A stretch of 32,000 nt of DNA from Candidatus Baldrarchaeum yapensis. Lineage in GTDB: Archaea; Asgardarchaeota; Baldrarchaeia; Baldrarchaeales; Baldrarchaeaceae. Under the pieces are notes generated by a model. That model ran no database searches and had not been told where the DNA came from. It saw only the letters and a program-made list of their open reading frames with translations. Shown here one piece after another: positions 5,923 through 30,144 of the stretch. The stretch spans positions 60,176 through 92,175 of the forward strand of contig JAEOSH010000003.1 in NCBI GenBank assembly GCA_016840465.1. Reading direction: 5' to 3'. Numbering within the stretch: position 1 is the first letter of the stretch; every line of letters starts with the position of its first letter. A program made the position numbers and the translations under genes.

Positions 5923-5936
5923 GGGGTGGTCGGGAG

Positions 5937-7958: not shown

Positions 7959-7969
7959 GGTGATTTGTC

Positions 7970-11568: not shown

Positions 11569-11679
11569 CCATTACGGATCAGCCGGGAATTACATACCCG
11601 GTGTCCTTTATTTGTTCTTTCCCAAGAAAAGAGGTATCCTCCAGTTATTCTGGTTATTACGTAAAAAATGTATTGGGGG

Positions 11680-12774: not shown

Positions 12775-13217
12775 CTCAACTCTCCCTTCTTAAGCTTCTC
12801 CTCGTCCTCCTTGATCCACTTCTCTATGTTCTCGACACCATGAATTAGATTTTTCAAGTCCTCCTCTAAGTTCGTCGGTTCTATTACCGCGATCCACCCC
12901 TCACCGTACGGATCCTCATTTAATAACTCGACTCTTTTCTCCTTAACGAGTTTTTCATTCACCTCTATGATCTTCCCGCTGACTGGCGAATACAGAGTTC
13001 CGCGCCATTTCCCACTCTCAACAACCGCAAGAGGCTTTCCTTGCTCGACATGCCGCCCAACGGGGAGTACTCGTATTGCTATTGCTCGCCCTAAGGCCTG
13101 TTGCCCCCAGTCATCTATTCCCACACGAACCTTCCCATTTTCAATACGTGCCCACGTGTGCCTTGGATGATAGTAGAGATCCTCGGGGAATTCATATTTT
13201 CCGAGTATTTTTACCAA
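12771..13217 (-). CDS. gcvH: Glycine-cleavage-H-like / LbpA-like lipoyl carrier protein
   Basis: LYYHPRHTWAR, VRVGIDDWGQ, lipoyl-Lys motif VVESGKW, YSPVSG, LLNEDPYGEGWI. TTG start at 13217 after GGAGGT (ORF track gives 13232). Overlaps lplA by 4 bp. Confidence 0.9.
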   Translation of the reverse strand: MVKILGKYEFPEDLYYHPRHTWARIENGKVRVGIDDWGQQALGRAIAIRVLPVGRHVEQGKPLAVVESGKWRGTLYSPVSGKIIEVNEKLVKEKRVELLNEDPYGEGWIAVIEPTNLEEDLKNLIHGVENIEKWIKEDEEKLKKGELR

Positions 13218-13262
13218 TATGCCGACCTCCACAATTTCTGAAGAGAAGTCACCGCATTGAGA

Positions 13263-13406
13263 ATATAAATGATGTACAGAGACTTGTTAGGGTGTATCAT
13301 CCCAATATGCTTTTTCCAAAATAAAACGCAAAGTTGCTGGAAAAATCGAAATTTTGTCCCTGTGGGTTTATTGTTTAAACCCTTTTAATTGACGTATGAT
13401 TTATAT
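13263..13406. promoter_or_regulatory. Divergent promoter region: back-to-back TTTATAT boxes flanking two inverted repeats
   Basis: TTTATAT on the minus strand at 13263-13269 (about 46 nt from the gcvH start) and on the plus strand at 13400-13406 (about 48 nt from the nuoA start). Inverted repeats TTTTTCCA-N19-TGGAAAAA (13311-13345) and GGGTTTA-N5-TAAACCC (13364-13382). Confidence 0.5.
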
Positions 13407-13453
13407 TGGGTACCTTTCGAATAGTTAGCGACTCGCGGAACGAGGGAAGACGG

Positions 13454-13777
13454 ATGAGCGACGCGCTAACTGTCATAATAGCGTTTGTGGTCTGCCTTCT
13501 GACTTCAGCGTTCCTTTACGCGCTCGGACGGAAATTGGCACCACGGGGCAAAGAGAATGACGAGAAAGTAACACCATACGCATGCGGAGAAGACTACCCG
13601 GTCGAATACATACAGTATTACATCCACTGGTTCTACTACGCGGTCTTCTTCACAATACTTGAGGTTGCAGCGATACTCATAGCGTTCTCGCTGTTCGCAC
13701 CAAGCGTGGCGCTCGTGGTGGTAATAATATACACGATTATGGCCCTAATTGCCGCGTTTATGGCACCGCGTGAGTAG
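13454..13777 (+). CDS. nuoA: NuoA-like membrane subunit
   Basis: 'KVTPYACGED' loop, 'YYAVFFTILEVAAI', three TM helices. Start at ATG 13454 (ORF track gives 13406). Confidence 0.88.
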   Translation: MSDALTVIIAFVVCLLTSAFLYALGRKLAPRGKENDEKVTPYACGEDYPVEYIQYYIHWFYYAVFFTILEVAAILIAFSLFAPSVALVVVIIYTIMALIAAFMAPRE

Positions 13778-13787
13778 GTGATGTGAT

Positions 13788-14225
13788 ATGGGAATACTAG
13801 ATCGTATGGTCAAGTGGGCGCGTATAAGATCACCCTGGATACTCCACTTCAACACGGGAGGATGCAACGCGTGTGACATAGAGGTACTAGCAGTATTAAC
13901 TCCAAGATTTGATGTTGAGAGGTTCGGAATACTCCTAAAGGGAAGCCCCAGACATGCTGATGTGCTCGTAGTAACAGGTCCCGTGACGAGACAAGTTGCT
14001 AAGCGGCTAAAAAGAATTTATTATCAAATGCCTGAGCCTAAATTCGTAATGGCAGTAGGTGCATGCGCAGTCAGCGGTGGGGTCTTCAGGGGGGCTTATA
14101 ACGTACATATGGGACTCGACCAAGTACTTCCGGTCGATGTATACGTTCCCGGATGCCCACCAAAGCCGGAGGCCATCATTGATGGTGTTGTTAAGTTGTT
14201 AAAGAAGTTGGAGGAGGGTGGTTAG
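13788..14225 (+). CDS. Group 4 [NiFe]-hydrogenase small subunit (NuoB/MbhJ/EchC-like)
   Basis: TGGCNACDIE (CxxC, hydrogenase type rather than the tandem CC of NuoB), SPRHADVL, GACAVSGG, DVYVPGCPPKP. Confidence 0.93.
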   Translation: MGILDRMVKWARIRSPWILHFNTGGCNACDIEVLAVLTPRFDVERFGILLKGSPRHADVLVVTGPVTRQVAKRLKRIYYQMPEPKFVMAVGACAVSGGVFRGAYNVHMGLDQVLPVDVYVPGCPPKPEAIIDGVVKLLKKLEEGG

Positions 14226-14226
14226 T

Positions 14227-14724
14227 GTGAGCGAACTAAAAGCGGAACAGGAACTCGTCGAGGATGTAAAGAAACAGCTCGGTGACAAAATTGTGGACAC
14301 CAAGATCCAGAGGGCAAAGAGGGTGTATATAAGGGTAAAGGCTGGAGATCACCGTGACGTTATAAAGTACCTCAAGGAGAAATGGGACGCATATCACGTA
14401 TCGACAATCACTGGCGTTGACTTGGGCGAAAATATAGAACTTCTTTATCACCTGTTCGCCTATCGGGGAAATGTTACGGTCACCGTGCGAACCGAGGTTC
14501 CAAAGTCGGATCCCAAGATACAGACAATTGTTGACATAATTCCGGGCGCAACGCTCTATGAGAGAGAAGTTCATGACTTGCTGGGTGTGGTTTTTGAGGG
14601 ACATCCTGAGCTTGAACGTTTAATATTACCGGATGACTGGCCAGAGGGGGTATATCCCCTAAGAAAAGAATACAAACTCGAAGTTGAGGAAGTTGAAGAG
14701 GTTAAGGAGGAGGGTGAGGCATGA
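14227..14724 (+). CDS. nuoC: NuoC/MbhK-like subunit
   Basis: 'STITGVDLG', 'ATLYEREVHDLLGVVFEGHP', 'LPDDWPEGVYPLRK'. GTG start at 14227 or 14218. Confidence 0.92.
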   Translation: MSELKAEQELVEDVKKQLGDKIVDTKIQRAKRVYIRVKAGDHRDVIKYLKEKWDAYHVSTITGVDLGENIELLYHLFAYRGNVTVTVRTEVPKSDPKIQTIVDIIPGATLYEREVHDLLGVVFEGHPELERLILPDDWPEGVYPLRKEYKLEVEEVEEVKEEGEA

Positions 14725-15935
14725 GCGAGGAGAGGATGTTTAGAATTCCCGTTGGTCCTCAGCATCCCGCTCTTAAAGAACCGATAAACTTCACATTCAT
14801 AGTTGATGGAGAAAGGGTCGTGGATGTCAAGCCACGGATAGGATACAATCACCGCGGAATAGAGAAACTCATGGAATCGAAGACGTACATTCAAGGGCTT
14901 TATCTCATCGAGAGAATTTGCGGAATATGCTCGGCGGCGCATCAGGGATGTTACGCTCAGAACATAGAGGAGGCCGCAGGCATCGAGGCACCCCCACGTG
15001 GTGTATACCTCAGAACGCTAATCTGGGAGTTAGAAAGAATTCACAGCCATCTCCTGTGGGTAGGTGTCGCATACCACGAGATAGGGTTTGATACGCTATT
15101 CATGTATGTATGGCGTGACAGAGAGCGGGTTATGGACATATTGGAGATGATATCGGGTAACAGGGTCAACTACGCAATGAACACCATAGGTGGAGTTCGT
15201 AGGGATGTTACTCCCGAAATTGTAGACAATGCCCTAAAGGCCCTCGACTACTTGGAAGAGAGAACGAAGTACTACAAGAAGGTCACCGAAGAGGACGACA
15301 GCATCCTTGCAAGGACCGTCAACGTCGGAATACTGAAGACAGAAGATGCTAAGAGATTATGCGCCGTCGGCCCGACGGCAAGGGCATCAGGACTGAAGGT
15401 TGATGTGAGAAGAGACGACCCATACGGTGCTTACGACGAGTTGGACTTCGACGTCGTAGTTTATGACACCTGCGACCTTACCGCGAGAGTACTCGTACGT
15501 ATAGACGAGGTTCTCGAAAGTATAAAAATGTGCCGCCAGATTCTCCAGAACCTCCCATCTGGGCCCGTTAGAGTGAAATTCAAGAGAAAGGTTCCAGAAG
15601 GAGAGTCAATAAGCAAGGTGGAGGCCCCTCGTGGAGAGGACTTACACTATGTCAAGGCAAATGGCACTGAAAAACCGGAGAGGTACAAGGTGAGAGCACC
15701 TACACTTGCGAATATACCGTCGGTCTGCGAGATGCTAAAGGGAGGATACATTGCCGACATCCCAATAGTATTCGCTGGTATCGATCCCTGTATTGCGTGC
15801 ACCGACAGGATGTTGTTCATAGATGTGAATACTGAGCGAAAGTGGATGTGGACGGAAGAGGAGTTGAGGATGTACGCGCGTAAGTGGTATAAGAAACATC
15901 TTAAGGAAGTGGTGAGGGAAAGATGGAAGTGCTAG
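14721..15935 (+). CDS. Group 4 energy-converting [NiFe]-hydrogenase large subunit (NuoD homologue with Ni ligands)
   Basis: L1 motif ERICGICSAAH and L2 motif DPCIACTDR are both intact; also GYNHRGIEK, EAPRGE, RAPT; about 40 aa extension after the L2 Arg. Confidence 0.93.
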   Translation: MSEERMFRIPVGPQHPALKEPINFTFIVDGERVVDVKPRIGYNHRGIEKLMESKTYIQGLYLIERICGICSAAHQGCYAQNIEEAAGIEAPPRGVYLRTLIWELERIHSHLLWVGVAYHEIGFDTLFMYVWRDRERVMDILEMISGNRVNYAMNTIGGVRRDVTPEIVDNALKALDYLEERTKYYKKVTEEDDSILARTVNVGILKTEDAKRLCAVGPTARASGLKVDVRRDDPYGAYDELDFDVVVYDTCDLTARVLVRIDEVLESIKMCRQILQNLPSGPVRVKFKRKVPEGESISKVEAPRGEDLHYVKANGTEKPERYKVRAPTLANIPSVCEMLKGGYIADIPIVFAGIDPCIACTDRMLFIDVNTERKWMWTEEELRMYARKWYKKHLKEVVRERWKC

Positions 15936-16939
15936 AACTCATACTCCTTATATTGGCAACTGTGTTGTTCCCCGGTGTTGTGTTCTGCACGTATTACGCC
16001 CTATTTCTAGAGTGGGTTGATCGAAAGTTCTTTGCAAGGCTCCAGAACAGAGTGGGGCCTTGGATAACTGGGCCAAAAGGAATACTGCAGCCCATTGCGG
16101 ATATAATAAAGTTACTCGCAAAAGAGGACATAACTCCAAATGGGGTTGATAGAGCCGGTTTCGTCGGTGCACCTTTCTTCGCATTAACCTTAGCGCTGTT
16201 CTCATTGATGTTCGTGCCAATAGCATCAACAAGCGGAATACTCTCATTTAAAGGAGATCTGCTCATAGTGCTGTTCATATCCACGGTATTCGGCATCATA
16301 ATAATATTCGCCGGGTACGTCTCTGCAAGCAGATTCTCGATAGTCGGCACTGCAAGAGCGGGGCTCCAGTTCGTGGGGTACGAAATCCCGCTCTTTGTGT
16401 CAGCAATTATTCCCGCACTTATAGCCAGGTCTCTGACATTGAAGGAAATAGTGGAGTGGCAGATTGCACATTACCCACTGATACTATGCTTCCCTGCAAT
16501 GATAGCATTCGGAATCTTCATAGTATGTTCCCTTGCGAAACTCGAAAAACTGCCGTTTGACATACCCGAAGCAGAAACGGAGATAGTTGCAGGGTGGGCA
16601 ACAGAGTTCAGCGGAAAGAAGTTGGCCCTCTTTAGACTTTCAACGGACCTGAAAATGTTGCTTCTTGCCGGATTGGCGACTGCATTGTTCCTTGGTGGAC
16701 CTGCACCCTGGGGCTTCACACTTCCGGCAGATCTAAATCCGTACCTTGCGGCGCTCATATACTCGATATGGTTCGTGATAAAGACAATAATCGTTGTGCT
16801 TATAATGTCCACGTTGAAAGCGGCATTTGCAAGGTACAGGATAGATCAGGCACTTAGGGGCTTCTGGAGATATCTAACGCCCCTATCGCTTGCAATACTA
16901 ATACTTACGCCTATAGTCGCCTATCATTTCTACTGGTAG
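15923..16939 (+). CDS. nuoH: NuoH/MbhM-like membrane subunit
   Basis: 'DRKFFARLQNRVGP', 'LQPIADIIKLLAKE', 'PFDIPEAETEIVAGWATEFSG', 'RYRIDQ'. Confidence 0.95.
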   Translation: MEVLELILLILATVLFPGVVFCTYYALFLEWVDRKFFARLQNRVGPWITGPKGILQPIADIIKLLAKEDITPNGVDRAGFVGAPFFALTLALFSLMFVPIASTSGILSFKGDLLIVLFISTVFGIIIIFAGYVSASRFSIVGTARAGLQFVGYEIPLFVSAIIPALIARSLTLKEIVEWQIAHYPLILCFPAMIAFGIFIVCSLAKLEKLPFDIPEAETEIVAGWATEFSGKKLALFRLSTDLKMLLLAGLATALFLGGPAPWGFTLPADLNPYLAALIYSIWFVIKTIIVVLIMSTLKAAFARYRIDQALRGFWRYLTPLSLAILILTPIVAYHFYW

Positions 16940-16949
16940 GTGATGTAAG

Positions 16950-17306
16950 ATGAGATTACCCGCAAGGTTCTCACCCGAATTGCTGAGGCATGTGCCGCGC
17001 AAGCCGGCAACAGTAATGTATCCGTTTGTCCCCGTGGAAGCACCGGAGGGCTTCAGGGGAAAACATGAATTTGATATAGAGAAGTGCGTTGGATGCGGCC
17101 TGTGCGCAAGGGATTGCCCCTCAGGAGCAATAGAAATGGTTCCCGATGAGAGAACAAAGGGCAAAAAGCGTCCTGTGATCCACTTGGACAGATGCCTCTT
17201 CTGTGCCCAGTGCGAGGAGTCATGCCCAAGAGGGGCGATAAAGCTAACAAAAGTGTACGAAATGGCGGGCTACAAGAGGGAAGAAATGGTAGTCACCGCC
17301 CCCTGA
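16950..17306 (+). CDS. nuoI: NuoI/MbhN-like 2x[4Fe-4S] subunit
   Basis: 'PATVMYPF...FRGKH', CVGCGLCARDCP, CLFCAQCEESCP. Confidence 0.94.
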   Translation: MRLPARFSPELLRHVPRKPATVMYPFVPVEAPEGFRGKHEFDIEKCVGCGLCARDCPSGAIEMVPDERTKGKKRPVIHLDRCLFCAQCEESCPRGAIKLTKVYEMAGYKREEMVVTAP

Positions 17307-17448: not shown

Positions 17449-18471
17449 GTGCTCCACATGTGTAAAAAGGAGAGTTTGTACAGGCTTGCAAAGGAAATAA
17501 AGGAATTCGTTGGAGTTTCTAGAAAGAGGCCAATCATAAGAGTGACTTCCGCATTAACCGATACCCTAGAATTTTCCGATGCAAAGATTATAAGAAGCTT
17601 CGGGGAGGATGCAGCAATACTCGACATAGGTAATGGAAGACTCCTCTTATTTGCGGCAGACGGAATATGGTATAAGTTGGTATCAGCGGACCCATTCTTT
17701 GCTGGATATTGCGCGGTATTGGTTAACGTGAATGATATTGTGTGTAAAGGCGGGGATCCTTTAGCGCTGGTCGATATACTCGGCGTTCCGAAGGAGTGCG
17801 ATATCGATAAAGTTGTGAGGGGAATAATACGGGGATGCAAGAAGTTTGGTGTTTCCTGCGTAGGAGGGCATTTGCACCCGGATCATCCGATCCCCGAAAT
17901 CTCCGCCGCAATCATAGGAGTTGCGGAATATAATAAGGTGATATTCAGCGATCTTGCAAGACCCGGTGACCTAATAATCATAGGGATAGATCTGGACGGG
18001 AAGTTTCATGAAAAGTTCAAATTGGCGTGGGACACAACATCGCACAAGTCTCCTAAGCAGATCAGAGATATGTTCCAAGCAATGTATATAATAGCGGACG
18101 AGGGACTAGCAACCGCAAGCAAGGATATAAGCAATCCTGGAGTCCTCGGATCTCTCGGGATGTTGCTCGAAGCAAGCCAAGTTGGCGGATACGTGTATCC
18201 TGATAAGATACCTATTCCGGAAAACGTGTCAATATATACATGGGTCAAGACGTACCCCGGATTTGGGGTTGTGCTCACATCACCCGAGGATCTTGCAAAT
18301 AAATGTGTGAAAATACTGGAAGACCATGGAATATCAGCATCCATAGTCGGAAAGGTGATCTCTGATCCTCTTCTTCTCCTAAAAAGCGATAATGAAATGG
18401 CTGAGGTCTTTAACTTCTCAAGAGACAAAATTTCGGGGAGACCTAACAGAGGGCAATTAAAACAAATTTAA
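17449..18471 (+). CDS. AIR-synthase/PurM-superfamily protein, methanogenesis marker protein 2-like
   Basis: 'SFGEDAA', 'LFAADGIW', 'DPFFAGYCAVLVNVNDI', 'GGHLHPD', 'ASKDISNPG.LG.LGMLLEAS'. The start could be ATG 17458. Confidence 0.8.
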   Translation: MLHMCKKESLYRLAKEIKEFVGVSRKRPIIRVTSALTDTLEFSDAKIIRSFGEDAAILDIGNGRLLLFAADGIWYKLVSADPFFAGYCAVLVNVNDIVCKGGDPLALVDILGVPKECDIDKVVRGIIRGCKKFGVSCVGGHLHPDHPIPEISAAIIGVAEYNKVIFSDLARPGDLIIIGIDLDGKFHEKFKLAWDTTSHKSPKQIRDMFQAMYIIADEGLATASKDISNPGVLGSLGMLLEASQVGGYVYPDKIPIPENVSIYTWVKTYPGFGVVLTSPEDLANKCVKILEDHGISASIVGKVISDPLLLLKSDNEMAEVFNFSRDKISGRPNRGQLKQI

Positions 18472-20005: not shown

Positions 20006-20944
20006 TTAAATTTTCACCCAGATTTCTTTAATCTTTTCGAGCAGAGGTTGCGTACTTATTGCGTGTAGATGTAAGCATAACTGGGTACGAGGATTTAATC
20101 CCAAAACTAGTCCTATTAACTGGCTGAGGTGGAGAACGGGTATTTGAAAATCTATCTTCCCACTTTTGTACAGATCTCTTTGGCAAATATCAAGCCTGTA
20201 CATACACGCAGGGCACCACACGACTATCATATCTGCACCGACTCTATGGATACTTTCTAACTTCCTTATGCATATATTTTCCGATAACTCGTAATGGACT
20301 CGTGACTGTATGCCGGATCCCCCGCAACACAAGTTTTTCTCCGAGTAATCCACGACCTCGGCCCCTAAATCGCTTAATAACTCGTCTACAAATCTTGGGT
20401 TCTTGTGGTCATCGAATTTCCTGAACATCAACTCGCGACGATAATGACATCCATAATGCACTGCAACTCTCAGCCCTTCTAGCGAGAATCTCATCCGACG
20501 CAGAATTTCATCCTTAAATGCATAAAACATCTCAGGTACATGGAAGATGTCAACATCTAAGTCGTTTACATCATCGGGAGTCCGACCAATTATCTCAGCT
20601 ATCCTCCGAGCCAGATCCTCGTTATTACTTAGTTCTCGAAGAGCATGATTAAACGCAGTGTAGCATGCGTTACAAACAACAAGTACTGCCTTGCAAGCGA
20701 GACTCTTTGCTAGGAGCATATTTCGGGCGCAGAGGGAAACCATGACTTCGGGTGGCGACATATTCCAAAAGAATGTGGGAAAGCCGCAACATGTCTGGTC
20801 ATCTGACATCAGGAAGGGTATGTCGAGAAACTTGAGCACAAAGTACGTGGCCACCTCTATCCCAGGATGGGCCTGCACGCAAGGCCGGAAGAGGAAGAAG
20901 GGCACCGTCTCTCTAATAATGCTGAAGTCCCTATCATTAGACAT
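20006..20944 (-). CDS. hdrB: Heterodisulfide reductase subunit B-like, divergent (copy 2)
   Basis: RPCV, QTCCGFP, VVCNAC, AVHYGCH, LCCGGSG, WCPAC: CCG-domain cysteines are retained, but the flanking motifs differ from copy 1. Confidence 0.88.
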   Translation of the reverse strand: MSNDRDFSIIRETVPFFLFRPCVQAHPGIEVATYFVLKFLDIPFLMSDDQTCCGFPTFFWNMSPPEVMVSLCARNMLLAKSLACKAVLVVCNACYTAFNHALRELSNNEDLARRIAEIIGRTPDDVNDLDVDIFHVPEMFYAFKDEILRRMRFSLEGLRVAVHYGCHYRRELMFRKFDDHKNPRFVDELLSDLGAEVVDYSEKNLCCGGSGIQSRVHYELSENICIRKLESIHRVGADMIVVWCPACMYRLDICQRDLYKSGKIDFQIPVLHLSQLIGLVLGLNPRTQLCLHLHAISTQPLLEKIKEIWVKI

Positions 20945-21470
20945 TTCTACTCACCTTTTTCATGTATTCTAAGGCTTCTGACTTCTCAAATATGCGCTTA
21001 ACGTCTCTAAGCGCATCTTCTGAAACAGACCTTGGTGGTATACCGACCTCCCTCTGGAGATTTATCAGATTATCTGTTAGCGGAACAGAAAGCCCCGTTT
21101 CCATGATGTTTTCCGCGAATTTTATTATCTTGCTCATCTTTAATAGCGTGTTTATGTCCTGTAAGAGCACGCCAGCGTATCTGAGATTTATTATGAACAA
21201 CGCCGGGTTTATCGACCGCGGGCACTTCATCGCGCATTCAAAACACAGCAGGCAGTCCCAAATGTTCTCACGTTCAAATATATCACCTAATGAGCATAAA
21301 AGGAAACGCCCGACGATCCTTCGGATATTAAAGTTGGAAAAGCGTGCCGCTGGGCAATCGCCGACGCACATCCCACACTGGTAGCAGGTTTCTATATTGC
21401 CCGCTCTTTTTCTCAAGTCCTCCTTTATTGCCCGTTCCACGGATTCGGGGATCGTCTGCGATCCTCTCAA
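20937..21470 (-). CDS. hdrC: Heterodisulfide reductase subunit C-like (copy 2)
   Basis: CYQCGMCVGDCP and IWDCLLCFECAMKCPRSI; overlaps hdrB2 by 8 bp. Confidence 0.9.
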   Translation of the reverse strand: MRGSQTIPESVERAIKEDLRKRAGNIETCYQCGMCVGDCPAARFSNFNIRRIVGRFLLCSLGDIFERENIWDCLLCFECAMKCPRSINPALFIINLRYAGVLLQDINTLLKMSKIIKFAENIMETGLSVPLTDNLINLQREVGIPPRSVSEDALRDVKRIFEKSEALEYMKKVSRNV

Positions 21471-21650: not shown

Positions 21651-22046
21651 TTGTCAATTTTCAAATACTTAAAGCCAAAAATCACGTATAGGGTCATTAT
21701 AGCTAGAATGCGTCCGAAAGAGGAACGTTCCGAGTACGATAGACTCTCAAATGGATATATGGAAATTGCCGCAGTTGCATATTTTAATCCGAGTGATTAC
21801 GACTCCCTGATAGGTAAGGAGGGTGGTAATGTTAAGGTGAAGGGCAGGGGAGGGGAGGTAGTACTTAAACCGCTAAAGGACGAAAGAGTTCCCAAGAACA
21901 CAATAATCATACCGCCGGGACCTTGGGCTAATGCGTTGATCGATGAGAGTGGCCATGGCGGCATTCCTCATTTTAAGTCCTTAAATGTCGAAGTGATGGT
22001 TGTCAAAGAGCCCGTTACCAAGGTAGAAGAGATTTTAAAAAGGTGA
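21651..22046 (+). CDS. fwdD: Formylmethanofuran dehydrogenase subunit D-like (molybdopterin-dinucleotide binding domain)
   Basis: 'AYFNPSD', 'VKVKGRGGEVVL', 'IIPPGPWANAL', 'GIPHFKS'; TTG start after AGGAGGTG. Confidence 0.85.
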   Translation: MSIFKYLKPKITYRVIIARMRPKEERSEYDRLSNGYMEIAAVAYFNPSDYDSLIGKEGGNVKVKGRGGEVVLKPLKDERVPKNTIIIPPGPWANALIDESGHGGIPHFKSLNVEVMVVKEPVTKVEEILKR

Positions 22047-22050
22047 TGAT

Positions 22051-23601
22051 ATGTCATCTGGAGCGCCTGAAAAGCTTATTATAAAAGGCGGCGTGGTCGT
22101 GGATCCGATTAATGAAATTCGAGGAGATAAACTCGATATTTTCGTTTCTAATGGAAAGATTTGTGAAGAATTCGATGAAAAGAATGCAAAGATAATAGAT
22201 GCGGCTGGAAACATCGTTGTTGCCGGGGCCATCGACCCTCATGCTCATCTCATCACAACAGGATCATTTCTGAGATACTTGGTTCCTGTAGCCCGCAAAG
22301 CACCAACTTATGAAATAATAAGAGAGTATGTGAGGCTGGGATGGACGACGATATCGCTGGTCGGTCCCTCGATTCCCGAAGTACTGCATGTACACACGAT
22401 CTTACGTAATATTGGTTTCATGGATTACGCGATATTTCCCCGCATCGACAATGATCAGATGTTTCTTTCTCTTGTCAGAACGCTGGACATCGCCGGACTT
22501 GCGACCTATTTGAGCATCATCGCTAAGAACTTACAAACGCTCGGTTTTTACATGGTACCGCCTGGCATCCTAGAGGGACAGGTCGCAGGACAAGATATAA
22601 AATCCTTGAAAGAAAAAATCAGAGTGCTGGACATCTCTCCCCTCGAAGCAATTATGGCACTTTTCGATTCCATAAAGAGAATAGGGTCTTTTGTTCCGGT
22701 GCAAATAGAGGCGCCTGGACTGACAAATAGCCCCATCGAAGAATTAAAGGAGATAATTGACGTACTTGGTGATGCAAGTATATTTGTGCCTCATTTATCG
22801 TATCATCTTCTGGGAGAGGACATCAGCACTGAGGAATTGCTGAAGCTTTTCGAGGGTGGCAAAATCTTCGGGGACATCGGAGTGTGCGTAGATAGAAGTA
22901 TTTCGGTAGCGCCCATAAAAAGGGTAGATGGATACAAGAATATACGGTGGTTTGCATCTTATGCTTGTGAAATGGAATCGTTTTCCCTCTATGGTCTTTT
23001 GGACGAAGAGTTTGCAGAGAAGCAGTCTTATGAAATTCTCAAAAACGCCTTAATGCTAGCAATTAAGGGAGGTAGGAAGGATAATTTGTCAATTTCAGGA
23101 GATATTCCACTATGCTCAGAACCTAAAGACCTTGCGATATTTATGTGTTCAATTCTTAGTAAGGAGTGCAGAAAGGAGGTTATAGGTCGGCATGCCACAG
23201 ATGACCTGTCAGCATTACCGGATGTCAATCTTATAGACGTCATACAAATGACCAGGGCGTCTCCTGCTAAAGCTTTAGGAATCGTAGAGAAAAAGGGACA
23301 TTTAGGAATCGGCGCAGATGCAGATATCGTAATCTATGACTTTGACATAGAGAGGCAGGACCCGTCGAGAGACTGGAAGGCATTCATGAAAGCGCTCCTG
23401 AAGCCGAAATATGTCATAAAGAGTGGTCAAGTAGTAGTGGTGGACGGCGAAATTACGAGTTCCGCCAATTCTTCTCCCATAATTGGCCGGGCAAAAGATA
23501 TCGACCAAAAAGAGTTCGAAGAATTTATTAACAGAGTGAGGAGAACCACAGGCCTTTACTACTCTTGCGTCGTTGAGAATAGATACAGAAGTGTCATGTG
23601 A
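22051..23601 (+). CDS. fwdA: Formylmethanofuran dehydrogenase subunit A-like amidohydrolase-fold protein with a degenerate metal site
   Basis: FwdA-like ends ('IIKGGVVVDPIN...DIFVSNGKI', 'IIDAAGNIVVAGAIDPHAH', 'TRASPAKALG...KGHLGIGADADIVIYD', 'YVIKSGQVVVVDGEI'); the core is strongly diverged. Confidence 0.8.
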   Translation: MSSGAPEKLIIKGGVVVDPINEIRGDKLDIFVSNGKICEEFDEKNAKIIDAAGNIVVAGAIDPHAHLITTGSFLRYLVPVARKAPTYEIIREYVRLGWTTISLVGPSIPEVLHVHTILRNIGFMDYAIFPRIDNDQMFLSLVRTLDIAGLATYLSIIAKNLQTLGFYMVPPGILEGQVAGQDIKSLKEKIRVLDISPLEAIMALFDSIKRIGSFVPVQIEAPGLTNSPIEELKEIIDVLGDASIFVPHLSYHLLGEDISTEELLKLFEGGKIFGDIGVCVDRSISVAPIKRVDGYKNIRWFASYACEMESFSLYGLLDEEFAEKQSYEILKNALMLAIKGGRKDNLSISGDIPLCSEPKDLAIFMCSILSKECRKEVIGRHATDDLSALPDVNLIDVIQMTRASPAKALGIVEKKGHLGIGADADIVIYDFDIERQDPSRDWKAFMKALLKPKYVIKSGQVVVVDGEITSSANSSPIIGRAKDIDQKEFEEFINRVRRTTGLYYSCVVENRYRSVM

Positions 23602-24901
23602 GTTTTTTGAATTTCCCCCGCTCTATAAGTCTTCTTATTCCTATTTTCGATATCTCGTCCTCTAGACGCTTTAACCTCTGTTGTAACTCGTCTTTGACAT
23701 CTTCAGGTACACTTGGAACTTCTCGTAACTCTTCCGCTGGAATTCTCTCCTCAATTTCAATTTTCGCATACCGCTGATGCTTTGGTGTTTCACGATTGAT
23801 AGTTGCATCTATTATTGCTCTTTTCCTAGACCCTGCCCACAGAGATGGAACCTCCGGATCAATAATGTTCACCGATGTTATCTCGACTTTAATTATATTT
23901 TCCGGGCATGCTCTCTCACAAGACCCGCAGAATATGCATAGACTCTCATTAACGGCTATCTTGCCTTCCCTTTCTGGGTCCTTTGGAATATACCAGCAAT
24001 TTACGGGACATATGTTTATACAGGCCTTACAACCAAGCGGATCGCACTTCTCTATATGGAAAAGCTTTATCTTTCCCTCGAAGCGCTTTTTTACCTCAAT
24101 GGCGTTTCTGGGACAAGTATTGGTACACCATCCGCAGTAAATGCAGTTTTCCTCGTTTATAACCACGTCTCCCGTGATGCGTGGTATTTCTATTTCTCTT
24201 TCAACTGGTGTTATGCACTTCACCTCTATTGCCTCATCAGGACAAATCTCTGCACAGAGGCCACAAAAATCACATTTCTCCAAGTTCACACTTATTGAGG
24301 AGGCAAAAGTGAGATCTGAGGGATCCGGCTTTTTCCACTCAATTACTATTGCATCGCACAATTCTGCACAAATACCACAAAATGTGCACTTTTCTTCGTT
24401 TATTTTTATTTCACCTTCGATTTTTTCGGGCATCTTCTTATATCTTACCAGATCTTCCTTCTTTTTAAGTTGAATTCTGACCTCTATACACCTCGTTGGG
24501 CAAATAGTCTCGCAAATCCTACAAGGAATGCACTTCTCTTTATCAATTCTTATACTTCCTACAATCCTCGGATACTCTTTCAGTGTCTCGATTCTCTGAC
24601 CATTTATTTCGAAAATTATCGCATTGATAGGACAGATTTCGGCACAAAGACCGCAAAACTGACATTTATCTTGATCAAAGGTTATTTTCGCAAATTTTCC
24701 ATCCATTTTCCCTGTAGCTATCTGGGGTATCGGTCCAAGAGAAATAGCACCCGTTGGGCATACCTCTACACATAATCCACATCCGACACACGTGTCCGTA
24801 TTGTAAATTAGCCTTTTCTTATAATTACGCCCAATCCACGTAACTATCATTTCGTTCTCCGTGAAGTCCAATAATATTTGGGGAGAAAACTCATCCGGCA
24901 C
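23594..24901 (-). CDS. fwdF: FwdF-like polyferredoxin, 8x[4Fe-4S]
   Basis: Eight ferredoxin-type motifs: CVGCGLC, CQFCGLC, CIPCRIC, CTFCGIC, CDFCGLC, CIYCGWC, CDPLGCKAC, CIFCGSC. Overlaps the end of hdrA-mvhD by 11 bp. Confidence 0.85.
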   Translation of the reverse strand: MPDEFSPQILLDFTENEMIVTWIGRNYKKRLIYNTDTCVGCGLCVEVCPTGAISLGPIPQIATGKMDGKFAKITFDQDKCQFCGLCAEICPINAIIFEINGQRIETLKEYPRIVGSIRIDKEKCIPCRICETICPTRCIEVRIQLKKKEDLVRYKKMPEKIEGEIKINEEKCTFCGICAELCDAIVIEWKKPDPSDLTFASSISVNLEKCDFCGLCAEICPDEAIEVKCITPVEREIEIPRITGDVVINEENCIYCGWCTNTCPRNAIEVKKRFEGKIKLFHIEKCDPLGCKACINICPVNCWYIPKDPEREGKIAVNESLCIFCGSCERACPENIIKVEITSVNIIDPEVPSLWAGSRKRAIIDATINRETPKHQRYAKIEIEERIPAEELREVPSVPEDVKDELQQRLKRLEDEISKIGIRRLIERGKFKKLT

Positions 24902-27272
24902 TTTTCATCACCAACTCGGAACCTATCGGACCCAACTTCTTGAGTTCTTCAACAAACTCCCTGACTATGTTTGCGAATCTCTCTCCTTCGGATGCCGAAG
25001 TGCTTGCGATTTTCAATCTGCGTGGATTAATCCCCACATTCTCAAGATACTTTTTGAGCGCAGAAATTCGTCTCTCGGCCTTTGAAAAACCTGTCCTGTA
25101 ATGGCAATCCTGAGGATGACAACCAACCACAAGGACTCCATCAGCTCCCGCCTTAAACGCCTCTAATATCATGAGGGGACTGACCCTTGCTGTGCACATG
25201 ACCCTTATCGGTCTAATGTTGGTTGGGTATTGTATTTTTGTGGTTCCTGCGAAATCAGCAGCCGCATAACCACACCAATTGCATAAGAATGCAACTATGA
25301 GGGGGAATTCGCATTTGTTTTCCAATGTTGCATGTATTTGGGCAATTATCTGTTGATTTGTGAAGTAAGGCATATCTAACGCGCCTGTGGGACAAGCGGC
25401 AACACAGGCGCCACATCCCAAGCAGGCACTTGAGTTTATGATAACCCCTTTCTCTTTATCGAATGTCAAAGCCCCCCAATCGCAGGCCTCCTCACAAAGC
25501 CTGCATCGCTTACATAGATCTGGATTATACGTCGGGACGTAGGGATCCAATTCTATTTTTTCGTGTAGCACAAAGTTCGCTGCATCGAGTGCGGCAGATT
25601 TGGAGTGTGCAACCGTGTCCTGAATGTCCTTAGGACCTTGAATTGTACCCGCAATGTAAATTCCCTGTATCATGGTCTCTGAAGGGGCAAGCTTCGGATG
25701 CCGCTCGAGGAGAAACCCATCAGAGGATTGAGAAATTCCTAGCATTCGTGCCAAGTCCTCGGTATCAGAGGGAGGAACCAGTCCCACGGACAATACCACG
25801 AGATCAGCATTTATTTCCATGATTTCCCCAGTAAGCGTGTTCTCTGCTCTAACTATGAGATCATCGCCGTTTTCATTTGCGGTGACCGAACTCGCCCTAC
25901 CTCTTATTATCTTTATTCCGAAATCTCTCATTGCTTTCAGCAAGAACTCCTCATACCCCTTTCCATACGTTCGTATATCCTGGAAGAGTATGAACACCTC
26001 GGCATCAGGTATCCTTTCCTTAATGCAAATAGCCTCCTTTATGCTGGCCGTACAACAGATCCTAGAACAATAGGGGTTGCCTACGCTTTCGTCCCTACTC
26101 CCAACACACTGGATGAACACGATCCTTCTGGGTTCCTTTCCGTTCGATAACCTGACCACACGTCCGCGCGTTGGGCCACTGGGGCTGAGCAACCTTTCGA
26201 GTTCTAGTGATGTTATAACATCGGGATACCTTCCGTAGCCGTACTCGCTCTTAAGTCGGGCATCAAAGGTTTCATAACCCGTGGCCACAATAATTGCACC
26301 AACATGAATCCTTATCCTTTCTGGCGTTTGATTGAAATCTATTGCATCGCGTTCACACGCATCTTCACAGTTTCTACAACCTATGCAATGATCTGGGTCT
26401 ATCACCGCGAGCAGAGGGACTGCTTGCGGAAACGGTAGATATATTGCCTTTCTTGGCCTCAGTCCCATGTCAAACTCGTTAGGGACCTCCACAGGACATG
26501 TTTTTGAACAAATTTCTATGCATCCGACGCATTTCTCCTCATTTACGTAACGTGGTCGTTTCAGTATCTCTACCTCGAAGTCCCCCGGTCTTCCCTTAAT
26601 GCTTGTTACCTCCGATAACGTTAGGACTTTTATCATAGGATGCTCCGAAACCTCGCTCATGAGAGGGGCCAGTATGCAAATTGAGCAGTCAAGAGTCGGG
26701 AAAAGCTTGTCGAGCATAGCCATATGCCCGCCCAGCGTCGGTTGCTTTTCGACGAGATAAACCTCAATTCCGAGACTTGCAAGGGAGAGTGCAGCCGTTA
26801 TTCCAGCGACTCCTCCGCCTATTACTAGAACTCTTTTCTTCGCACGTGCGTATCTGCGCTGTATTGGGGTTAGAAGCCTTGCCTTTTCGATTCCCATCTT
26901 TATCAGAGCAATAGCCTTGTTTGTCGCGGCGGTTGGAGAATACATGTGAGGCCAAGAGCATTGTTCACGAATATTCACAAATTCTACCAGAAACGGATTC
27001 AAACCCGCCTCTTCTGCTGCTCTTCTAAAAAGTCTCTCATGAAGCCGCGGGCTGCATGCCGCTATTACAACTTTTGATAATTTTTCCTCTGCTATTTTCC
27101 TTTTCAACTCATTAAGCCCTTCCTTGCTACATAGGTACGTGTGATCCATCACGAAAACGTTGGGGGCCCTCGCTATTTCGTTTAGAACCCGCTTGATGTC
27201 TATTACTCCGGCAATGTTCGATCCGCAATGGCATATGAAAACTCCTATTTTGTCGCTGTCCATATACTTCAT
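24891..27272 (-). CDS. hdrA: Heterodisulfide reductase subunit A fused to C-terminal MvhD [2Fe-2S]
   Basis: IGVFICHCG, AACSP, NIREQCSW, FAD motif VIGGGVAG, DKLFPTLDCSIC, inserted ferredoxins, ELERL, IQCVGSRD, YCSRICC...IKE, C-terminal ferredoxins; then the MvhD motifs FLCNWCGY, RVMCTARV and GCHPQDCHY. Confidence 0.96.
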   Translation of the reverse strand: MKYMDSDKIGVFICHCGSNIAGVIDIKRVLNEIARAPNVFVMDHTYLCSKEGLNELKRKIAEEKLSKVVIAACSPRLHERLFRRAAEEAGLNPFLVEFVNIREQCSWPHMYSPTAATNKAIALIKMGIEKARLLTPIQRRYARAKKRVLVIGGGVAGITAALSLASLGIEVYLVEKQPTLGGHMAMLDKLFPTLDCSICILAPLMSEVSEHPMIKVLTLSEVTSIKGRPGDFEVEILKRPRYVNEEKCVGCIEICSKTCPVEVPNEFDMGLRPRKAIYLPFPQAVPLLAVIDPDHCIGCRNCEDACERDAIDFNQTPERIRIHVGAIIVATGYETFDARLKSEYGYGRYPDVITSLELERLLSPSGPTRGRVVRLSNGKEPRRIVFIQCVGSRDESVGNPYCSRICCTASIKEAICIKERIPDAEVFILFQDIRTYGKGYEEFLLKAMRDFGIKIIRGRASSVTANENGDDLIVRAENTLTGEIMEINADLVVLSVGLVPPSDTEDLARMLGISQSSDGFLLERHPKLAPSETMIQGIYIAGTIQGPKDIQDTVAHSKSAALDAANFVLHEKIELDPYVPTYNPDLCKRCRLCEEACDWGALTFDKEKGVIINSSACLGCGACVAACPTGALDMPYFTNQQIIAQIHATLENKCEFPLIVAFLCNWCGYAAADFAGTTKIQYPTNIRPIRVMCTARVSPLMILEAFKAGADGVLVVGCHPQDCHYRTGFSKAERRISALKKYLENVGINPRRLKIASTSASEGERFANIVREFVEELKKLGPIGSELVMKSAG

Positions 27273-27379
27273 CTCTTGAAAATAGTGGATTGTGTGCCAC
27301 CTTGTTGAAAGTAAATAAATGGAACCATATACGTATTTCTGACACTGACCTCCGGTTCATATTCCAGAGGTGTAAGAGT

Positions 27380-27844
27380 TTGAAGCCGTCTCCTCTCGAG
27401 ATATATAAACTACTTCCGAAGACAAATTGCAAAAAATGTGGTTTGCCAAACTGTATGGCATTTGCCGTGAGATTACTGAGCGGTCAGGCAAAAATAGAGG
27501 ACTGCCCCGACCTCGTAGAGAGGGAGGAGTTCAGAGAGAATTATGAAAAACTTAAGGAGTTGCTGGGAGAAAGACCAGCAGCAGAAGTATCATTACCGAG
27601 AATAGATAATGAGGAGGCATGCAATGGATGTGGTATCTGTGTGGTGGTTTGCCCTGCGAATGCTAGGGCAGACCCGGAGGTTGGTAGCGGAAAGGGGGCA
27701 TCCCGAAAGGAAGGTCTCATTTTCGTGGTTGTTAATGGAAAAGTCAAGATAATGGATATAAGTAAGTGCAGGAGACAGGAAGATTTGACAACGTGTCGTG
27801 TGTGCGAGGAGTTCTGCCCAAATAATGTCATAAAAATAGGTTAA
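27380..27844 (+). CDS. fwdG: FwdG-like ferredoxin with an N-terminal small Fe-S domain (AcsC/RnfB N-terminal type)
   Basis: 'LLPKTNCKKCGLPNCMAFA...CP' followed by CNGCGICVVVCPANA...GKG and C..TTCRVCEEFCP. TTG start at 27380 after GAGGTG (ORF track gives 27290). Confidence 0.75.
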   Translation: MKPSPLEIYKLLPKTNCKKCGLPNCMAFAVRLLSGQAKIEDCPDLVEREEFRENYEKLKELLGERPAAEVSLPRIDNEEACNGCGICVVVCPANARADPEVGSGKGASRKEGLIFVVVNGKVKIMDISKCRRQEDLTTCRVCEEFCPNNVIKIG

Positions 27845-27866
27845 AACATAGGAGGTATGCAAAAAT

Positions 27867-29159
27867 ATGAGATCATTTCACAATGTCATATGTACGGGCT
27901 GTTCTCTCCTCTGTGATGACATACAGGTCACTGTCGAGGGCTCGCACATAAAAGAGATTTTAAACGCATGTTCAAAAGGATGCTCAAGGTTCGTTTCGGA
28001 TCCAAAAGAGGGCAGATTATTGTCTCCCTTAATAAAGAGGAATGGTCGAGCCGAAAAGGCAAGCCTCGAGGACGCCGTAAAAGAGACCGTTGAAATACTA
28101 AAGACTTCCGATAGACCTCTGCTTTATGGCTGGAGCAACTGCGTATCGGAAGCTCAAATACTGGGGATAAAAATAGCACGAAAAATCAGAGGAGCAATAG
28201 ACGCAACATCCAGCTTTTGCCAAGGCGTCGTATACCTCGCAGCGTGCGAGGCAAAGGGGTATCACACAGTATCCTTGGGCGAGGTATTTAACAGAGCGGA
28301 TCTACTCGTGTTTTGGGGATGTAACCCTGCTGATGCTCATCTCAGGCACTTCAGTAGGTATACTTTCTTTCCACGTGGTAGATACAGACAAACGGGGTTT
28401 GAAGAGCGAGATAGTATCCTTATCGACGTTAGGGAAAGCGGATCAGCAAAAATTGCAAGGACACCATTGATCATAGAGCCAGAAACTGATTACGAGTTAA
28501 TACAGACAATAAGGGCGATTATTAAGGGACACGAAATTCTACATGGAAAAGTCTCCGGTGTAGACTTTGAAAAAGTAAAATCCATTGCGGATAAAATGGT
28601 CAACTCCAGATTTTGTGTAATATTCTATGGGCTGGGCCTATCCGGAACGAAAGGTACTTATAGAAACGTCTCCGCCCTTCTCTCCCTCGTTGACGACATA
28701 AACAGGAGAGGAACCCGTTGCGCAGTAATTCCTATGGCGGGGCATTTTAACATGGTTGGATTTAACAGGGTGCTCCTCGAGTTGACCGGATACCCGTATG
28801 GTGTGGACTTTCATGACGGTAGCGCTTACTGGAACCCAGGTGAAACCACCGCTTTTGATCTATTGAAAAAGGAAGAAGTCGATGCTCTCGTGGTCGTAGG
28901 TGCGGATCCTGTCTCCCACTTTCCGCGGAAAATTGCAAAGTACATATCAGAAATTCCAACTATCTACATAGGGCCTCACGTGACGCCCACCTCAGCCGTA
29001 AGCAGAGTCTCTATACCGGCGACAATAGCCGGTATAGAACAGGAGGGGGTTGCGTATAGACTCGATGGTCTTCCGCTAAAACTTAAAAAGATAGCAGATC
29101 CGCCGGATGGCGTAATTCCCGACGTAGCCATACTTGAGGCGATCCTTAAGCGCCTATAG
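27867..29159 (+). CDS. fwdB: Formylmethanofuran dehydrogenase subunit B-like W/Mo-bis-MGD protein with altered active-site residues
   Basis: CTGCSLLCDD/ACSKG [4Fe-4S], LYGWSN, SSFCQG, NRADLLVFWGCNP..AHLRHFSRY, PMAGHFN, VVGADP..HFP, YRLDGLP. Confidence 0.88.
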   Translation: MRSFHNVICTGCSLLCDDIQVTVEGSHIKEILNACSKGCSRFVSDPKEGRLLSPLIKRNGRAEKASLEDAVKETVEILKTSDRPLLYGWSNCVSEAQILGIKIARKIRGAIDATSSFCQGVVYLAACEAKGYHTVSLGEVFNRADLLVFWGCNPADAHLRHFSRYTFFPRGRYRQTGFEERDSILIDVRESGSAKIARTPLIIEPETDYELIQTIRAIIKGHEILHGKVSGVDFEKVKSIADKMVNSRFCVIFYGLGLSGTKGTYRNVSALLSLVDDINRRGTRCAVIPMAGHFNMVGFNRVLLELTGYPYGVDFHDGSAYWNPGETTAFDLLKKEEVDALVVVGADPVSHFPRKIAKYISEIPTIYIGPHVTPTSAVSRVSIPATIAGIEQEGVAYRLDGLPLKLKKIADPPDGVIPDVAILEAILKRL

Positions 29160-29181
29160 GTAACATTGCACGGGAACGAAA

Positions 29182-30144
29182 ATGAAGCTAAATCCCCCAA
29201 TAAGTATTAAAGATGCTAAGAAGATTCTGTCTGCACCGGATCAGGAGTTAAAGGCTCTCATGGAACATGCGAGGAAAGTCGCGGAGGATATCCATGGGCC
29301 GAACATTACTTTCTATGTACCAGGTAATAGCTTCCCAGCAATTTCGATAACTGGAACGAAGTGCTGGCTGCTATGTAAGCATTGTGTTGGGCATTACTTA
29401 AAGGGAATGATACCAGCAACAACTCCAGACGAGTTTCGAGAACTCTGTGTAAGACTCTGGAAAAGGGGGGCAAAGGGCTGTCTCATAAGTGGTGGTTACA
29501 CACGCTTCGGTGCACTTCCAATAGAATCTTTCTTTGAGGCAATAAAGTATGTGAAGAAAAACACAAAATTGCTACTAAATGTCCATCCCGGGTTTTTATC
29601 ACGTAATTCAATAATGCGTTTGGTGCAATGCGGCATCGATGCGGCATCGATAGATGTTGTGGGAAGTGAAGAAACAACAAAACAAGTATATGGCATCAGT
29701 AAGGATCCTCAAAGCTATGATAAATTATTATGCGAATTTAAAACGGCAGGAGTACCAATATTAGCCCCACACGTCTGTATAGGATTACATTTTGGTAAGC
29801 TACTCGGGGAACTTCATGCTCTTTCAATAATAAGGAATCATGAACCATCGGTTCTCGTATTCATAATCTTTACACCGACTCGTGGAACTCCCATGGAGGC
29901 GTGCAGTCCTCCGAACATTAAGGATGTTATCAGGCTCATTGTAGCCGCACGTCTGATGATGCCAGGTGTTCCGATATCCCTAGGATGTATGAGACCTAAG
30001 GGAACGTATAGAAGGGTTCTAGACGAAGTGTGCATGAGGGCAGGCGTTAACAGAATAGTTATACCGAGTGGGGTTGCATTAGATGTGGCTCGCGATCTGG
30101 GCTATGAGGTGTTAAGTAAAGATTTATGTTGTGTTTTCGCATGA
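29182..30144 (+). CDS. lipS1: Radical SAM protein, LipS1-type archaeal lipoyl synthase subunit
   Basis: CxxxCxxC (CWLLCKHC) preceded by FPAISITG; GCLISGG; LNVHPG; PHVCIGL; ISLGCMRP; C-terminal LCC. GC(M/A)R and CC are the auxiliary-cluster motifs I recall for T. kodakarensis LipS1. Confidence 0.78.
   Translation: MKLNPPISIKDAKKILSAPDQELKALMEHARKVAEDIHGPNITFYVPGNSFPAISITGTKCWLLCKHCVGHYLKGMIPATTPDEFRELCVRLWKRGAKGCLISGGYTRFGALPIESFFEAIKYVKKNTKLLLNVHPGFLSRNSIMRLVQCGIDAASIDVVGSEETTKQVYGISKDPQSYDKLLCEFKTAGVPILAPHVCIGLHFGKLLGELHALSIIRNHEPSVLVFIIFTPTRGTPMEACSPPNIKDVIRLIVAARLMMPGVPISLGCMRPKGTYRRVLDEVCMRAGVNRIVIPSGVALDVARDLGYEVLSKDLCCVFA

Follow-up and report, generated by a model that had tools for sequence, protein, structure and literature searches.

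A FwdB-type metallopterin subunit without the His/Arg pair of the CO2/formate site in an Hdr-linked gene cluster of an Asgard archaeon

The B subunit of formylmethanofuran dehydrogenase (FwdB or FmdB) is a metallopterin protein of the tungsten/molybdenum (W/Mo) type, in which Cys118 is the metal ligand, His119 and Arg288 form a catalytically important pair (PMC6926001) and His290 is a further residue named in the literature (PMC11656701). The solved Fdh-Hdr-Fmd and Hdr-Vhu-Fwd assemblies include a polyferredoxin through which electrons of low potential travel from HdrA, of heterodisulfide reductase (Hdr), to FwdBD (PMC12054007; PMC13518236). Here we describe a gene for a FwdB-type protein, called fwdB', that lies in a 32,000-nucleotide stretch of the genome of Candidatus Baldrarchaeum yapensis (contig JAEOSH010000003.1, positions 60,176 to 92,175; the whole stretch is referred to as the window). 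The product retains the cofactor-binding residues of FwdB and carries other residues in place of both His119 and Arg288.

Several systems resemble this locus. The cultured Ca. Methanonezhaarchaeum strain YNP3N has a 'Fwd-Hdr' cluster, for which the passages covered propose formate oxidation (Kohtz et al., Sci Adv 2025, PMC12700198). The fwdG2B2D2 genes of Methanosarcina acetivorans are present in all three Methanosarcina genomes compared and are constitutively transcribed (Rohlin and Gunsalus 2010, PMC2838876), and the HdrA2-associated polyferredoxin of Methanosarcina has no assigned role (PMC5296606). More distantly, NuoG (the 75-kDa subunit of complex I) and FhcB are derived from formate dehydrogenase (FDH), have lost catalytic residues and are kept for assembly or electron transfer (PMC6926001).

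The fwdB' gene occupies positions 27867-29159 of the forward strand and encodes 430 amino acids. Its reading frame is intact and an AGGAGG ribosome-binding site is situated 9 nt before the ATG. The translated protein scores 480.4 bits against the NCBIfam model TIGR03129 (formylmethanofuran dehydrogenase subunit B; cut-off 327.8), and its best solved relative is FwdB of M. (Methanothermobacter) wolfeii (5T5I chain B, E 1.6e-113). A Pfam search returned no family at E 0.001, and the family was assigned via the NCBIfam and PDB searches. The AlphaFold (AF2) model has a predicted local distance difference test score (pLDDT) of 85.5 and superimposes on 5T5I_B with a template modelling (TM) score of 0.93; its nearest solved folds are exclusively of the Fwd/Fmd and FDH types. 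FwdB' is about 41-45% identical to the five solved FwdB/FmdB proteins (5T5I_B, 8RJA, 9SFI, 7BKB, 9SW6). It has in common with them the [4Fe-4S] motif, Cys118, His290, the pterin-binding segments and a separate FwdD-type cap.

The two active-site motifs are different. Codons 118 and 119 (TGC CAA, 28218-28223) keep the Cys metal ligand and replace His119 by Gln, giving SSF-C-Q-G, while codon 291 (GCG, 28737-28739) specifies Ala at the position of Arg288 in the alignment with M. wolfeii FwdB, giving PM-A-GH with the motif His290 kept. All five solved FwdB/FmdB proteins have C/Sec-H-G and [MI]-R-G-H at these places. The second-sphere pair His119/Arg288, absent from FwdB', is thus present in five out of five solved proteins, and it is found in 100% of 37 canonical FwdB sequences. 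Cys9, Cys12, Cys16 and Cys35 (codons at 27891-27971), which form the N-terminal [4Fe-4S] motif, are invariant in the aligned relatives, as is Cys118, and the WGCNP..AH.RH.SRY pterin-binding segment is intact. A previous sequence-only reading of the window had called attention to the altered ligand and PMRGH segments and to the preserved Fe-S cysteines and pterin-binding segment. Translation and alignment to the five solved proteins bear this out, and the names Cys118, His119 and Arg288, which it gave, are those used in PMC6926001. A characterised, active FwdB/FmdB with the same substitutions, which that reading had named as the case that would speak against it, was not found among the solved and characterised proteins.

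The differences from canonical FwdB are concentrated in these motifs. Upon aligning the 37 canonical (CH/R) sequences, 78 columns were found to be at least 90% conserved, and FwdB' retains 68 of them. Radical differences are limited to G13S, H119Q, P121V, R288A, V296M and W305E, and four of these six fall in the two active-site motifs, where CHGP becomes CQGV and RGHYNV becomes AGHFNM. The share of canonical positions kept is 0.87 for FwdB' and 0.90 for its closest relative (P0004, described below), the highest values among 312 homologues, for which the mean is 0.69; these are the homologues, out of 322 in all, that lack Arg or Lys at position 288 and have a residue at position 118. For canonical sequences the share lies between 0.82 and 1.0. 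Positions near the cofactor (G292, D208, D347, P348) are about 0.91-1.0 conserved where Cys118 is present and eroded where it is lost: 0.91 versus 0.33 for G292, 0.99 versus 0.60 for D208 and 0.98 versus 0.46 for P348, the set lacking Cys118 being heterogeneous and including distant bacterial relatives. The four [4Fe-4S] cysteines are 96-98% conserved across the family. As far as can be judged from the aligned sequences, the CO2/formate pocket of FwdB' is dismantled while the [4Fe-4S] and metallopterin scaffold is kept under selection.

A single base change suffices to turn His into Gln, and altered motifs could also come from a pseudogene in decay or from an error of assembly or sequencing. 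Such an origin is very improbable. The frame is open behind a strong ribosome-binding site, and the stretch is found almost verbatim in at least five public sequencing runs; no RNA run was among those listed for 27290-30144. The closest relative of FwdB', the protein P0004, is encoded on a separate 2.4-kb contig (L090) and is 69% identical in amino acid sequence; it was the only close match in 5.8 billion proteins. P0004 keeps both Cys-Gln and Ala through other synonymous codons (CAG for CAA and GCT for GCG), and its neighbours match those in the window, with a gene for an Fe-S protein upstream and a LipS1 gene downstream. Sequencing error is unlikely to lie behind the Gln and Ala residues, because an independent contig has the same residues with synonymous codon differences. 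Between FwdB' and P0004 the nonsynonymous divergence (dN) is 0.22 and the synonymous divergence (dS) is saturated (LWL85 2.4; NG86 and YN00 give no value at 69% amino acid identity), so that the ratio of about 0.09 by LWL85 is best read as dN being far below dS, with selection in this lineage resting on one pair of sequences. No orthologue of FwdB' more than 50% identical occurs in 40 related genomes. Judging from this pair, FwdB' is under purifying selection and its substitutions are neither private to this genome nor signs of decay.

Two expectations of the sequence-only reading were therefore borne out: a group with CQG and MAGH exists, in that P0004 shares both motifs and large clades have CQG with M[AVG]GH, and selection is purifying rather than relaxed. 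That reading went on to conclude that a kept scaffold with a replaced catalytic pair points to a W/Mo enzyme with another substrate or to an electron-transfer subunit, rather than to decay. The scaffold, the replacement and the absence of decay all stand, whereas the choice between the two functions does not follow, since the data fit either.

The fwdB' gene is part of a cluster of Hdr and Fwd-like genes. A gene for an Fe-S protein occupies the position of fwdG (27380-27844, forward strand) and ends 22 bp before fwdB' on the same strand. Its product has an N-terminal four-cysteine PF04060 domain, as found in RnfB and CdhE, followed by two ferredoxin motifs, making three clusters. It is 42-52% identical to the Fe-S genes at 14 other loci, and all 12 cluster cysteines are invariant in 15 homologues. 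The open reading frame begins at TTG 27290, which leaves a gap of only 17 bp to the start of the divergent hdrA2. A start at TTG 27380, giving 154 amino acids and a 107-bp divergent promoter region, is likely, because it follows a GAGGTG site and agrees with the N-termini of the homologues.

On the other side of this region lies hdrA2 with a fused MvhD (FlpD) domain (24891-27272, reverse strand, divergent from the Fe-S/fwdB' pair; 793 amino acids; NF040770, 1106 bits, cut-off 1100). It is followed, with an overlap of 11 bp, by a FwdF-like polyferredoxin of 435 amino acids having seven complete CxxCxxCxxxC motifs and 35 cysteines (23594-24901, reverse strand). Further on are fwdA', a divergent FwdA-like amidohydrolase (22051-23601, forward strand; 184 bits, cut-off 393), and fwdD', a molybdopterin dinucleotide-binding cap domain diverged from FwdD (21651-22046, forward strand; 66.6 bits, cut-off 175). 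Profile searches also identified a divergent hdrC (20937-21470) and a divergent hdrB with two CCG motifs (20006-20944), both on the reverse strand. There is no FwdC gene in the fwdB' cluster. FwdB' is a member of the FwdB/FmdB family by sequence and predicted fold, yet it is not filed as a formylmethanofuran dehydrogenase, because His119/Arg288 is missing and the operon lacks a functional FwdA and FwdC.

Both the HxH motif and the catalytic Asp are present in the FwdA' protein of the window. Where FwdA has the carboxy-lysine, the beta-5 His region and the gate Lys64, the aligned FwdA' residues are Tyr, Glu/Val/Gln and Gly, respectively, although the middle part is divergent and its alignment somewhat uncertain. 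Most FwdA' copies of Asgard archaea and Jordarchaeia (for example those at L035, L040, L088 and L010-L012) retain the metal ligands.

Complex prediction of the Fe-S protein with FwdB' gave a score of 0.89, the best of three controls being 0.04. Of 80 solved complexes, 58 attained this mark, as did 2 of 110 mismatched pairs. The contacts agreed 100% among three runs, with a partner pLDDT of at least 81, and the predicted interface places residues 30-39 of FwdB', around Cys35, opposite the first CxxCxxC of the partner. The prediction supports binding of the Fe-S protein to FwdB' without showing it, and the pass may come from likeness to the solved FwdB-FwdG pairs.

A similar module is widespread. 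It was compared at 80 loci from a pattern scan of one genome per species and 37 regions from related genomes; some genomes were retrieved twice, so that a few loci are duplicates, and related genomes do not count as independent. The order Fe-S gene, fwdB', fwdD', sometimes with fwdA', is found in Promethearchaeota, Hod-, Hermod- and Odinarchaeota, Jordarchaeia, Methanoperedens and Methanolobus. The polyferredoxin-HdrA2 pair is placed divergently upstream with HdrBC and FwdD' beyond, as in the window, in Bathyarchaeia, Thermoproteota and a genome of the same order (L120), and HdrA-MvhD and the polyferredoxin, along with HdrBC, adjoin FwdB' in the same manner at L015, L022, L032, L047 and L120. 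Arg288 occurs in none of the 58 FwdB' genes directly preceded by an Fe-S gene. The residues at 118-119/288 in these 58 loci are CQ/G in 30, CH/A in 10, CQ/V in 9 and others in 9. Among the 51 loci unlinked to an Fe-S gene, by comparison, Arg is found in 31 and Lys in 18, the latter in anaerobic methanotrophic archaea of group 1 (ANME-1) and relatives. The motif TSSFCQG is identical in lineages that are only 37-40% identical overall.

The Lys-containing proteins make up a FwdB clade of their own in ANME-1/Methanophagales, Alkanophaga and some metagenome-assembled genomes labelled 'Methanosarcinales', with C-H-N and PM-K-GH motifs and without linkage to an Fe-S gene (L016, L018-L021, L023, L025-L027, L029-L031, L033, L034, L036, L038, L044, L058, L063 and L081). 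In this type the CO2/formate site may still function, with Lys in place of Arg.

Orthologues in named Methanosarcina, Methanolobus and Methanococcoides isolates are annotated 'formylmethanofuran dehydrogenase subunit B' and have CQG or CLG with PM[VA]G. The fwdG2B2D2 set of M. acetivorans has the G-B-D order without A and C that matches the Fe-S-linked type, and Methanosarcinaceae orthologues are about 38% identical to FwdB'. We infer that the Fe-S-linked set of Methanosarcinales is fwdG2B2D2, because of this gene order, its presence in all three Methanosarcina compared and the named Methanosarcina matches.

In the more careful of the trees (IQ-TREE, 72 rows, LG+C20 with posterior mean site frequencies, three trait columns removed) the canonical FwdB sequences form one clade with support of 98/82. 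On this tree a single change accounts for which sequences have Arg and which do not, whereas at least four are needed for His versus Gln at position 119, suggesting that Gln119 recurs or reverts repeatedly after the loss of Arg. FwdB' and P0004 form a long branch (100/100) on a weak backbone (59/85), and forcing them into the canonical clade costs only 6.0 log-likelihood units, a grouping that the approximately unbiased test does not reject (p 0.29). Synteny is what assigns FwdB' to the Fe-S-linked module. In the same-order genome G002 (locus L120, C6:117449-130720) the same cluster of HdrB-HdrC, FwdD' and polyferredoxin-HdrA2 is present with the Fe-S/FwdB' pair inverted, but its FwdB' belongs to another subclade, being 34% identical to that of the window and having CH/A. 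Finding a different subclade in the same cluster points to exchange of the B' gene within a conserved Hdr cluster. The tree also groups a locus from a genome labelled as of the same phylum (L122) tightly with a Candidatus Jordarchaeum record (L010).

The organism also has the usual enzyme. Elsewhere in its 2.27-Mb, 96% complete genome is a canonical FwdB (P0002, with CHG and PMRGH) that is 47% identical to FwdB' and adjoins a FwdD; canonical FwdA and FwdC lie about 10 kb from it on contig C56, and this FwdC is the only one in the genome above the cut-off. The nearest relatives of this canonical copy are proteins carrying the name Freyarchaeota. Because a canonical FwdABCD set is present elsewhere in the genome, FwdB' is an additional copy and not the only Fwd of the organism. 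McrA was not found in the 96% complete genome, and the host is a non-methanogenic Asgard archaeon.

The main differences from the solved FwdB/FmdB systems, apart from Gln for His119 and Ala for Arg288, are the absence of FwdC from the cluster, a FwdA-like partner that appears in the alignment without metal ligands, a three-cluster Fe-S protein in place of the small FwdG and a separate canonical Fwd set in the genome. In the passages covered, the YNP3N 'Fwd-Hdr' cluster is like the window in having a second FwdBD set with HdrABC, a FwdF polyferredoxin and FwdG in addition to a separate canonical FwdABCD. The degenerate FwdA-like gene and the non-methanogenic Asgard host set the window apart from it. 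Those passages do not discuss the active-site residues, whereas the copy in the window is without both residues of the formate site.

Gene order and the solved Hdr-Fwd/Fmd supercomplexes together suggest how the cluster might work. Electrons would pass between the bifurcating flavin adenine dinucleotide of HdrA2-MvhD and the FwdF-like polyferredoxin, from there to or from the three-cluster Fe-S protein and the [4Fe-4S] cluster of FwdB', and finally the W/Mo metallopterin, with HdrB and HdrC handling a disulfide. FwdB'D' would be the low-potential entry or exit point of this chain. FwdB' would then supply the metallopterin-binding part of a distinct, widespread Fwd-like module that consists of the Fe-S protein, B' and D', joined in some lineages by A', and that is very unlikely to be an ordinary formylmethanofuran dehydrogenase. 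Its metal site would turn over on something other than formate or CO2 bound by Arg and His; the exchange of the cationic Arg for a small side chain hints at a substrate that is uncharged or bulkier. In short, the reading that we propose, by analogy with the solved assemblies, places FwdB'D' at the low-potential end of an Hdr bifurcating complex, with a still redox-active W/Mo centre that does not carry out Arg/His-assisted formate or CO2 chemistry; we would give it a probability of roughly 45%. A live metal site is favoured over a dead one because TSSFCQG is kept in such distant lineages and because the cofactor-proximal positions are conserved where Cys118 is kept.

This wiring copies that of the CO2-reducing Hdr-Fwd supercomplexes, and FwdB' could still be a formate/CO2 oxidoreductase that exchanges electrons with HdrABC through a modified second sphere. 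Formate oxidation is what the YNP3N report proposes for its own cluster in the passages covered; the nearest solved folds are all of the Fwd/Fmd and FDH types, and the Cys ligand and His290 are retained. Nevertheless this is improbable, as His and Arg are both catalytically important (PMC6926001, PMC11656701) and occur in every solved FwdB/FmdB and in all canonical sequences compared. Every Fe-S-linked member has a small uncharged residue for Arg, whereas the Fwd of ANME-1 retains a cationic Lys instead. The genome, moreover, already has a canonical FwdB.

Another possibility, which we regard as less likely than the proposed redox-active centre, is that FwdB' serves as an electron relay or scaffold in the manner of NuoG or FhcB, both of which appear among the fold matches to its model. 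It would be kept for its [4Fe-4S] cluster and for assembly with Hdr and the polyferredoxin, and the metallopterin, if bound, would be structural or act as a redox buffer. The erosion seen in the family has a stepwise character that would suit such a role: Arg288 is lost in all Fe-S-linked members, position 119 is Gln, Leu or His, and several lineages, cultured Methanosarcina among them, have lost Cys118, while the four Fe-S cysteines are held at the level given above. The A' partner is catalytically altered as well, and a similar conclusion was reached for another Hdr-linked protein of the molybdopterin family (PMC12054007). However, the Cys ligand is missing from both NuoG and FhcB, as are the [4Fe-4S] domain and the D cap from FhcB, whereas FwdB' retains all three. 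FwdB' keeps nearly all cofactor-proximal positions along with Cys118, its changes are clustered at the pocket and not scattered, and different phyla share SSFCQG, whether by conservation or by convergence. The module has also kept a cap subunit of its own, FwdD'. As a terminal relay, FwdB' would furthermore require an acceptor, and none is evident.

Several observations weigh against a live W/Mo centre at the end of the Hdr chain. Cys118 is replaced by Ser in M. mazei, Leu in M. siciliae and Thr in Helarchaeota. Within Methanosarcina the FwdB2-type proteins have SSFCQG, SSFCLG, SSFSLG or SSFLLG (P0387 of M. mazei, P0374 of M. siciliae, and P0333 and P0356 of Methanosarcina spp.), and the [4Fe-4S] cysteines are conserved among these orthologues though the ligand Cys is not. 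Because several lineages have lost Cys118, the module can evidently persist without a metal ligand; and because the erosion reaches the Cys ligand in M. mazei, M. siciliae and Helarchaeota, loss of catalysis is, on the sequences compared, a genuine trend in this family. The residue at position 288 varies by clade (Ala, Val, Gly, Ser, Ile), as does that at 119 (Gln, Leu or His), which fits relaxed constraint on a dead pocket. In 34 of 35 A' proteins from other genomes Asn takes the place of the catalytic Asp, and most have Gln for the gate Lys. A second catalytic site for a two-step reaction is unsupported, because A' of the window seems to be without the carboxy-lysine and one His ligand, and other Asgard A' proteins have Asn for the Asp. 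FastTree, a quick IQ-TREE run and the careful IQ-TREE run give the FwdB' lineage differing neighbours and do not fix its placement in the Fe-S-linked clade. Finally, no substrate can be named for FwdB'.

The proposal of a redox-active centre can be extended, speculatively, to a particular kind of enzyme. FwdB'D' would catalyse a new, non-formate W/Mo reaction driven by Hdr bifurcation through a dedicated polyferredoxin/Fe-S wire, common to Asgard archaea, Bathyarchaeia and Methanosarcinales. The change of His119 to Gln after the loss of Arg288 would be recurrently adaptive and may have arisen in the FwdB' lineage independently, from a canonical-like FwdB. We consider this extended scheme tentative and, taken as a whole, rather doubtful. 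What appears to be new here is the double replacement of His and Arg in the most canonical-like member that lacks Arg, a degenerate FwdA' in an Hdr cluster, the absence of Arg from all 58 Fe-S-linked genes and the recurrent switch from His to Gln or Leu. No earlier description of the His/Arg loss in this FwdB paralogue was found in the literature searched, which is not proof that there is none.

Genes concerned with lipoate are found on both sides of the cluster. A LipS1-family lipoyl synthase of the radical S-adenosylmethionine type is encoded 22 bp after fwdB' (29182-30144, forward strand); it is the only copy in the genome, its adjacency to FwdB' is kept on contig L090, and LipS2 is situated on contig C35. 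LipS1 was not seen beside FwdB' in the other loci fetched. A second HdrB/C row (10108-13232, reverse strand) starts with a GcvH-like lipoyl-carrier protein (12771-13232) and a lipoate-protein ligase (11680-12774) that overlap by 4 bp, and continues with HdrC (10999-11568) and HdrB (10108-10998), this HdrB/C pair being above the curated cut-offs. The row recalls the sHdr-LbpA-sLpl(AB)-LipS1/S2 systems of sulfur oxidisers (PMC10332631), a likeness that suggests a lipoyl protein as a candidate for the 'heterodisulfide' of Asgard Hdr. Taken together with the LipS1 gene downstream, the GcvH-Lpl-HdrCB row upstream gives a lead, and only a lead, to a lipoyl-protein substrate for the FwdB' module; LipS1 is not shown to be a member of the module.

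Between the two HdrBC pairs are two complex-I/Mrp-like gene sets on the forward strand (5916-9493 and 13406-17306), with NuoL- and NuoM/N-like genes and NuoA-, B-, C-, D-, H- and I-like genes. There is no NuoEFG-type input module in the window. An AIR-synthase-like protein (17449-18471, forward strand) scores 365.3 against the cut-off of 365 for 'methanogenesis marker 2', in a genome in which McrA was not found.

In methanogens, Hdr-type electron bifurcation has a central place in energy metabolism. In Asgard archaea Hdr is highly expressed, while its disulfide substrate and its low-potential partner are both unidentified (PMC11291895), and the polyferredoxin encoded with HdrA2 in Methanosarcina has been without a known partner since 2010-2017. 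The Fe-S/FwdB'/FwdD' module is a concrete candidate for that partner. The altered pocket argues against the plain label 'formylmethanofuran dehydrogenase subunit B' given by current pipelines, an annotation that can wrongly credit genomes with a second, or even a first, CO2-reducing step of the Wood-Ljungdahl pathway. As orthologues are present in genetically tractable Methanosarcina, the question can be tested directly.

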